From Clostridiales bacterium (GTDB lineage: Bacteria > Bacillota > Clostridia > Caldicoprobacterales > UBA3941): a stretch of 64,000 nucleotides of DNA. Location of the stretch: NCBI GenBank assembly GCA_012735575.1, contig JAAYGY010000050.1, positions 9,020-73,019 of the forward strand. The letters run 5' to 3'. Shown here in pieces: positions 20,444 through 21,214 of this stretch. A model generated the notes under the pieces. It was given only the letters and a program-made list of their open reading frames with translations. It searched no databases and was not told where the DNA came from. A program made the translations under genes and the position numbers. Within the stretch, counting starts at the first letter, position 1. Each line of letters opens with the position of its first letter.

Positions 20444-20469
20444 GCTTTTTCTTTACAATCTAGAATCTA

Positions 20470-20842
20470 CTAAAGTGTATAGCAAAAGAGGAAGACCTGG
20501 TATTAATGAGATTATAGCCAATGAGAACCAGTAACTTATATTAGATAAATGGCATATCCATTTACTTGGTAAAATATGATCCCCTTCTATAATTGGATGT
20601 TAAAATGCAATTGCTATATAGTTCACTGTATCTGGTACTAAAGTATACCTGGATAACACTAAAGTATTTACTACAAATATCAAAAGGAGGGAGAGATAGG
20701 TCTAAAGTCTTATTCTAAGTATACCAGGACAGCTAATATAGATTAACTTTTTAGTAGCTATAAAAACTACACTCTGGTGGGCAGATAATAGGGTATTACT
20801 TGTCTATAATTTGTATTGAAGGTTTTAAACACTAAATATATT
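20470..20842 (+). repeat. Dispersed direct repeats CTAAAGT(A/G/C)T in an ORF-free spacer (candidate regulator-binding array)
   Basis: ctaaagtgtat 20470, ctaaagtatac 20638, ctaaagtattt 20659, ctaaagtctta 20702, ctaagtatacc 20715 and ctaaatatatt 20832. Also aagtatacctgg (20641) and aagtataccagg (20717). Confidence 0.5.
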
Positions 20843-21214
20843 ACAGCAAGACGATAAAAGATTTCTGTGAGTATGGTAGTAGGATCATTAGCTTAAAGGC
20901 AAGGGTGTACATTACAAGGCGGAGGCGAAAGAAACCGGAAACAAAACTCTGCTGGAGGAGGGCAAACTATATAAGAGATTAGATACGCTTATGGTACTAT
21001 AGTATACTCCTATAGCACTTAAGCATACTCCTACTGTACACCACAAGTATAAACCTTAAATCATCTCTTAGTAGCCACTCAAATATACTTTCGGGTGAAA
21101 TAATAAAAGGATTTCATGACTATAATTAAACTAATCTAAACTAGTTAAATTTTCCTAGACAAAAAAAGAAATCTCCTAATGGCAATACAATCTTCCCTAT
21201 AAGGGGTGAATAAC

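Follow-up and report, generated by a model that had tools for sequence, protein, structure and literature searches.

In Bacillus subtilis, the matrix operon tapA-sipW-tasA is under the multi-input control of several unlinked regulators, SinR, AbrB, RemA and SlrR, which act at sites such as GTTCTYT. A comparable arrangement is found in the 64-kb stretch of Clostridiales DNA analysed here (hereafter the window), where a gene-free spacer of 823 nt (20392–21214) extends from the stop codon of a response regulator (RR) gene at 20391 to the ATG at 21215 of a gene for a protein of 476 amino acids (aa), the first gene of an operon that encodes a SipW-type signal peptidase and TasA-like fibre proteins. 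In both cases a long, operator-dense region precedes a SipW/TasA matrix operon and would integrate more than one input. However, the B. subtilis regulators are not RRs of the type encoded in the window, their sites are unrelated to the sequence boxes predicted in the spacer, and no cyclic di-GMP (c-di-GMP) riboswitch takes part. The length of the spacer is also largely due to debris of gene loss, unlike that of the tapA-sipW-tasA region.

A closer parallel is offered by the sipW-bsaABCRSD operon of Clostridium perfringens, which, like the window, combines SipW and genes of the BsaA/TasA family in one operon with a linked two-component system; BsaS/BsaR are needed for sipW-bsaA transcription and purified BsaR binds the promoter PsipW (PMC7395162). 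The C. perfringens two-component system forms the tail of the fibre operon, whereas in the window it has an upstream operon of its own, preceded by a c-di-GMP-I riboswitch, and the first gene of the window operon, encoding the 476-aa protein with a SpaA-like C-terminus, sets it apart from the C. perfringens operon described there. PsipW is described as dependent on its RR; by analogy, the window promoter may depend on the RR encoded next to it. The boxes in the window are predicted ones, and the likeness to BsaR lies in operon content and linkage. BsaR goes unmentioned in a second paper on BsaA.

The RR of the window (19777–20391) carries Response_reg and GerE domains and lies beside a HisKA_3 histidine kinase (HK; 17996–19780). 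Among NarL-family regulators, LiaR of enterococci has a 16-bp recognition site of the form T-N4-C-N4-G-N4-A, and 29–43 bp are protected by the activated LiaR tetramer (PMC4482077). LiaR/VraR-type systems and the window system share the combination of a regulator with a GerE-type helix-turn-helix domain and a HisKA_3 kinase (PMC4482077). They are also alike in site organisation, in which a consensus and an adjoining site take up ~30–43 bp per dimer pair, tens of bp upstream of the promoter. The window box T-GGTA-C-TAAA-G-TATA-C shares the T-N4-C-N4-G frame of LiaR, but its sequence differs and it has C in place of A at the outer position. LiaR acts on an envelope-stress operon, whereas the target of the window regulator would be a matrix-fibre operon, with no autoregulatory site found. 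The best NCBIfam match of the window RR is NarL, below the cutoff, and membership of the LiaR subfamily is not supported, since the scores fall below every equivalog cutoff.

Comparison of the window with relatives' loci or metagenome contigs (labelled L004, L005, L010, L012, L014, L016–L020, L028, L029 and L031) suggests, with a probability of roughly 0.6, that gene loss turned the spacer into a composite regulatory region, in which two sister modules carry predicted operator boxes for the adjacent RR. This reading is carried by the homology of a gene relic, the paralogy of the modules, the conservation of the boxes and the occurrence of box-like sites exclusively in RR-linked loci among those examined. 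An operator array for a NarL-type regulator is thus probable on sequence grounds. The features of the spacer are listed below, with scores from a position weight matrix (PWM) of the boxes and pairwise identities where they apply.

20399–20572, minus strand: relic of a 369-aa SipW-like gene, last 59 codons (tblastn against the L005 protein, 66% identity, E 1.7e-19).
20415–20437, plus strand: intrinsic terminator of the HK-RR operon, ATTCGACGAG-TCAAT-CGTCGAAT then T7; kept in L004, L005 and L014.
20602–20854, plus strand: distal module, orphaned promoter/operator region of a lost 180-aa gene (blastn and alignments).
20633–20671, plus strand: distal box pair, TGGTACTAAAGTATACCT (20633) and TAACACTAAAGTATTTAC (20654); PWM scores 25.9 and 19.0, leave-out PWM 25.5 and 17.8; pairwise identity 79–87%, with 77% of columns identical in three lineages.
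20699–20727, plus strand: second distal block, with degenerate box-like words GGTCTAAAGTCTTAT and TCTAAGTATACC (box match by eye); pairwise identity 76–79%, with 72% of columns identical in the window, L014 and L010.
20805–20810, plus strand: distal TATAAT, a putative −10 element paralogous to the proximal one, with a weak CAGATA at the −35 position; pairwise identity of the −10 region 71–76%.
20856–20943, plus strand: probably what is left, in decayed form, of the start of the lost 180-aa gene (signal peptide and Y-T-K-A-E-V region), covering most of a G-rich patch (local alignment).
20990–21214, plus strand: proximal module, promoter region of the fibre operon (alignments across lineages).
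20992–21030, plus strand: proximal box pair, TGGTACTATAGTATACTC (20992) and TAGCACTTAAGCATACTC (21013); PWM scores 22.3 and 22.1, leave-out 18.7 and 19.3; pairwise identity 68–76%.
21031–21110, plus strand: a third box, degenerate (TAC..CACAAGTAT), and after it the mid block (alignments).
21053–21110, plus strand: mid block TAAATCATC.TTTAGTAGCCA.TC.AATATACTT..GG.TGAAATAATAAAAG, the best-conserved stretch of the spacer; pairwise identity 79–86%, with 67% of columns identical in all sequences.
21122–21127, plus strand: putative TATAAT −10 of the fibre operon; ATGACTATAATTA is invariant in five lineages, and the pairwise identity of the −10 region is 78–96%.
21134–21214, plus strand: presumed 5' untranslated region (UTR) of about 80 nt, with the palindrome CTAAT-N3-ATTAG just past the −10 and the ribosome-binding site (RBS) AAGGGGTGA at 21201–21209; 63–79% identical across lineages.

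The two modules have separate counterparts in the relatives. The proximal block (20990–21222) is 75–77% identical to the region before the fibre gene in every close lineage, and the distal module is 72% identical over 254 nt to positions 2–251 of L010, which lie directly upstream of an intact 180-aa gene. The distal module is also 71% identical to L014 3091–3313, in a locus where the 180-aa gene has been lost as well. The modules are in turn paralogous to each other, as seen in repeat D1 (20633–20667 and 20992–21026, 77% identical) and repeat D2 (20795–20811 and 21111–21127, 82% identical, with TATAAT in each copy). Both present the same layout, consisting of a box pair spaced 21 nt start to start, degenerate copies and then (T/A)CTATAAT. 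The box comprises about 16 bp, GGTAC-N4-GTATACC with a C-N4-G core, and shows a pseudo-dyad and phasing by whole helical turns; TACTATAGTA at 20995 is a perfect 10-bp palindrome. The 21-nt spacing recurs in six of seven pairs across lineages, and the proximal pair is kept in L004 and L014. The mid block carries inverted copies of box words (CTTTAGTAG and AATATACTT), with a weaker version in L019. In the promoter of the intact 180-aa gene, an indel of 74 nt, located between the boxes and the −10, distinguishes L005 (about 8627) from L010 (about 105–180); both encode an identical fibre protein (P0004), and the indel is a within-species polymorphism of promoter length.

The boxes stand out both from the neutral background and from the rest of the window. 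Four-fold degenerate sites of the RR and SipW genes, used as the neutral baseline, are 42–61% identical between the window and L014, L004 and L005, whereas the boxes reach 68–87%, a level of conservation consistent with operator sites. The junction, the coding stub and the stretch preceding the proximal module show pairwise identities of 33–42%. The 14-mer GTACTWWAGTATAC has just two exact occurrences in the 64 kb, at 20635 and 20994, and with a PWM built from the boxes of the other lineages only, the four window boxes take the four highest scores among about 128,000 positions. The next-best site of the window (38219–38236, TGGTACCTAAGCATTCCA, PWM 14.9–15.2) lies inside a 179-aa minus-strand open reading frame (ORF) and is probably a chance match.

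In the few loci compared, the boxes and the regulator tend to occur together. Linkage of the RR is kept in the window, L004, L005, L014, L019 and L016, as would be expected of a cognate regulator, and PWM matches are found in the RR-linked loci of the window, L004, L005/L010, L014 and L019. The last of these, whose RR is 65% identical and which did not enter the PWM, has two strong matches (16.3 and 20.6) in the spacer between its RR and fibre genes, which overlap and form GTAC-N4-GTATAC-N4-GTAC; its matches of at least 9 in 12.8 kb number three, and each of them falls in this spacer. The RR-less loci L012, L017, L018 and L020 have no PWM match of at least 12, and none just upstream of the fibre gene. 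The recognition helix of the regulator, ITEYTVKKH(V/I)S(Q/R)IL, is near-unchanged in six RR lineages, TEYTVKKH being strictly invariant. In a metagenome-wide scan for box pairs, 4 of the matches were orthologous loci and the 13 others were unrelated chance matches, mostly of high GC; no further targets emerged. Unrelated GC-rich tandem arrays of GGTACT..AGTGTAC words (for example GGGGCGGTACT, repeated) are present in L031 (about 35–120) and L028 (about 1675–1735), and these surfaced solely by matching the search pattern.

Several observations weigh against assigning the boxes to the RR or a role to both modules. L016 is RR-linked and has no PWM match, although a palindrome with different spacing, GGGTATAC-AAAA-GGATACCC, can be recognised there by eye, and L005 keeps proximal box 2 only, box 1 being degenerate. 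Neither the HK-RR operon nor its riboswitch has a box upstream of it, and there is no sign of autoregulation. The comparison covers about six lineages, which cluster in the phylogeny, and for this reason the association of RR and boxes does not amount to independent evidence. The boxes lie 72–130 nt (proximal) and about 135–170 nt (distal) upstream of the −10, which is far for a class I or class II activator. Moreover, the mid block and not the boxes is best conserved, which suggests that another factor may be the main player, and the conservation of the distal module may partly predate the loss of its gene. The match of the stub of the 180-aa gene is marginal, its score being equalled in 18 of 500 shuffles (p about 0.04).

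The origin of the spacer can be followed in L005, which shows the synteny of the window plus two genes between the RR and the fibre gene, one on the minus strand for a SipW paralogue of 369 aa, the other on the plus strand for a protein of 180 aa; a terminator and then 500 nt come after the latter. The intact 369-aa gene is assigned to TIGR02228 / SipW. In the window, the DNA at 20381–20572 is 77% identical to L005 7330–7524, the 3' end of this gene (blastn with short words), and the relic at 20399–20572 contains an in-frame stop, has lost the other 310 codons and leaves no ORF. Syntenic, collinear similarity is thus combined with disabling lesions, as in a pseudogene, and the terminator of the HK-RR operon now sits inside the former 3' end of the convergent gene. 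The relic argues against the L005 arrangement being a lineage-specific insertion. The order HK-RR, 369-aa SipW paralogue (minus strand), 180-aa secreted protein, terminator and fibre operon was therefore probably ancestral, with both extra genes deleted in the window lineage. The residues of the 369-aa protein that are retained differ among lineages (310–368 in the window, 72–132 in L029 and 339–369 in L004), which indicates that the deletions were independent; the L014 spacer is nearly identical to that of L029, block for block. As for the second gene, 20856–20943 is collinear with nt 7–99 of the L010/L005 180-aa gene (..AYTKAEVTNP..; score 16.5), and a tblastn search of the 180-aa protein against the spacer gave no match.

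These results also bear on an initial annotation of the region, which had described an ORF-free spacer with a CTAAAGT repeat array and a G-rich patch. The gap is indeed gene-free, with no ORF of at least 60 aa in 20392–21214 (longest 41–55 aa in the ORF listing), but the annotation had placed its start at 20444, skipping the RR terminator at 20415–20437, and its true length is the 823 nt given above. The same spacer, with one or two single-nucleotide differences, is present in two NCBI assemblies. The G-rich patch is real, though it represents a modest rise (GC 0.37–0.40 and GC skew +0.32 at 20800–20999), and its resemblance to the 180-aa gene suggests that it is probably decayed coding sequence. 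The size of the spacer had been considered atypical; the reason, which had been missed, is that the scars of two deleted genes remain in it.

The six repeats that had been annotated are all present at the positions given for them, and so is a longer paired unit, AAGTATACCTGGA / AAGTATACCAGGA, recovered here as repeat D3 with the form AAGTATACC(T/A)GGA. CTAAAGT as such is not enriched across the window, with 15 copies in 64 kb on both strands against 12.6 expected. Four of the 15 copies lie on the plus strand within 20470–20708, and 7-mers with at least four same-strand copies in 250 nt number only two in the 64 kb, CTAAAGT and GGTATGG (block-shuffle mean 0.33). The GGTATGG cluster is located at 15143–15220, within a 366-aa gene of the Ldh_2 family. 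At 20638 and 20659, CTAAAGT forms the core of each box of the conserved distal pair, and the repeat words at 20702 and 20715 fall in the second conserved distal block (72% of columns identical in all compared). By contrast, the copy at 20470 lies inside the relic of the 369-aa gene and is not kept in L004 or L005, and the word at 20832 is not conserved. The best-conserved copies, at 20992–21009 and 21013–21030, had been overlooked. The proposal that the repeats form a binding-site array for the neighbouring regulator is nevertheless favoured by the comparison, given the conservation above neutral, the 21-nt pairs and the restriction to RR-linked loci.

In the mechanism proposed here, the NarL/LuxR-type RR, phosphorylated via the HisKA_3 kinase, would bind each 42-bp box pair as two dimers. 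The bound RR would then switch on, rather than repress, the operon of the 476-aa protein, SipW and the BsaA/TasA-like proteins, with transcription starting from about 21134. A simple sigma-70 scan found no full promoter at either TATAAT, and no usable −35 is present at 16–18 nt by scan or by eye, which suggests that the promoters are probably activator-dependent. Promoters of sigma-54, SigH and SigK type and a leader peptide from the ATG at 21117 were also considered and dropped, the needed motifs or RBS being unconserved elsewhere (by eye). L004 and L005 have a strong terminator between the modules (z −5.0 and −3.4, respectively), which is degraded in L014 and absent in the window, where the terminator scan found none between 20440 and 21214; this automated scan had missed the plus-strand terminators of L004 and L005, which were confirmed by folding. 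Given that the inter-module terminator is missing in the window, transcripts from the orphaned distal promoter probably continue into the fibre operon, for which this promoter would thus probably serve as a second, upstream RR-dependent one.

A different fate of the distal module has to be weighed against this. It is possible, if doubtful, that the proximal module alone works and that the distal module, which holds most of the CTAAAGT repeats, is an undecayed, functionless leftover promoter. Such a leftover would fit its homology to sequence that serves an intact gene as promoter region in L005 and L010, the situation in L004, which has the fibre operon and the proximal module and no distal module, and the possible dating of part of its conservation to the time before the loss. 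However, the independent deletions in two lineages, the window and L014/L029, spared the same 250 nt, and the distal boxes and −10 are 71–87% identical, compared with 34–42% for the adjoining stub and junction. In addition, the distal module is kept as an orphan in exactly these two lineages, and it is just in these two that the intervening terminator is gone or degraded. Survival of the module through two independent pairs of deletions, beside flanks at neutral level, argues for selection, and we tentatively suggest that it may have been retained by selection after both losses and co-opted as a second RR-dependent promoter or enhancer. The boxes might also serve another factor encoded elsewhere (SinR-, AbrB- or RemA-like, or c-di-GMP-binding), with the RR acting elsewhere or indirectly, which seems unlikely. 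The control of the B. subtilis tapA-sipW-tasA promoter by several unlinked regulators, the mid block (21053–21110) and CTAAT-N3-ATTAG, which are not box-like, and the distance of the boxes from the −10 would agree with such a factor. Nonetheless, box-like sites occur in RR-linked loci only while the recognition helix of the RR is invariant, a 16-bp C-N4-G box in pairs of ~42 bp suits NarL-family dimers and tetramers, and in C. perfringens an operon-linked RR binds PsipW directly.

An RNA-based function appears very improbable. A long cis-regulatory leader, a riboswitch or a small RNA (sRNA) encoded in the spacer could account for the conservation of the proximal 230 nt, including the presumed ~80-nt 5' UTR, and for a remnant hairpin with a T-run about 70 nt past the distal promoter in L014; c-di-GMP riboswitches are moreover found at the equivalent place in L020. 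Yet Rfam searches of the spacer at gathering and permissive thresholds returned only noise (best E 2.7), and minimum free energies were no better than those of shuffled sequences (z +0.21 for 20817–21230 and +0.94 for 21134–21230). RNAalifold on five orthologous UTRs gave 9 pairs, 0 compensatory changes and a covariation term of −0.16, and the window has no terminator in 20440–21214. The structured 5' leader and the sRNA that the initial annotation had offered as options thus find no support, since Rfam, folding and covariation disclosed no riboswitch or structured leader in the spacer, and the distal −10 at 20805, from which an independent sRNA might start, is followed by no terminator before 21214 and by sequence at the neutral level of 33–42%, with no Rfam match. 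That the repeats belong to a MITE or other mobile element, or to an invertible one such as a phase-variable promoter, has hardly any probability. The repeat words do occur in both orientations, and the 74-nt indel between L005 and L010 lies inside the distal module, but long inverted repeats are absent from the spacer (best arms 10–19 nt, 74–91% complementary), no recombinase gene is found among the neighbours, and the metagenome-wide scan for box pairs yielded nothing beyond the orthologous loci and unrelated high-GC chance matches.

The composite region favoured here, with its two RR-dependent modules, is flanked by operons that suggest a wider circuit. Downstream, the gene for the 476-aa protein, whose SpaA-like C-terminus is a weak match and which belongs to a small family of 9 clusters in a set of 5.8 billion proteins, is followed by the SipW-type signal peptidase (TIGR02228, 111 bits) and three camelysin/TasA/BsaA-like proteins. 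The presence of SipW together with BsaA/TasA-like genes indicates that the fibre operon is a SipW-dependent biofilm-matrix operon. Upstream, a c-di-GMP-I aptamer at 17332–17416 (80 bits against a threshold of 35) precedes the operon formed by a 94-aa ORF, the HK and the RR. It is followed by the hairpin GACTGCCA...TGGCAGTC and a T-run (to 17445), identified by eye and not flagged by the automated scan; the 5' arm of this hairpin overlaps the closing stem of the aptamer, a layout that suggests an ON switch. A c-di-GMP riboswitch also precedes the HK-RR operon in L005 (2808–2893) and in L014 (156–240, a GGC variant). Among the RR-less loci, L020 has tandem c-di-GMP-II and c-di-GMP-I riboswitches directly before the fibre gene (3919–4003 and 4232–4320), and L018 has a c-di-GMP-I aptamer (7570–7648) inside the operon, between two TasA-like genes. 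This pattern suggests two ways in which sister lineages wire c-di-GMP to the fibre genes, a direct one with the riboswitch on the operon itself and an indirect one by way of a two-component system that carries the riboswitch. With the riboswitch placed ahead of the regulator operon in the window, a circuit leading from c-di-GMP through the two-component system to the matrix fibres is likely. The literature searched contained no paper connecting c-di-GMP riboswitches with SipW, TasA or camelysin operons.

If this circuit holds, the spacer would form its output node, and its two tiers would replace the direct riboswitch control seen in the RR-less L020 and L018. The locus is a TasA/BsaA-type biofilm-fibre operon of the uncultured anaerobic-digester Clostridia order Caldicoprobacterales, and for its 0.8-kb gap there is now a testable map, which shows the candidate operator boxes, two putative promoters and the scars of two genes. 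Both pseudogene debris and matrix promoters that depend on a regulator are familiar, and the kind of region described here is in that sense already known; it would provide a natural example of a gene deletion that leaves a promoter behind, possibly rewired onto the next operon.

Two minor observations concern the surroundings of the spacer. The 94-aa ORF (17737–18021) has no family match and overlaps the start of the kinase gene; at the same position L005 has a 249-aa gene and a 369-aa DUF5305 gene, which suggests that the ORF may be another relic, or else encode a small membrane protein that partners the kinase. Further upstream, a 6S (SsrS) RNA gene is present on the plus strand at 9115–9303 (75.7 bits against a threshold of 46.4).

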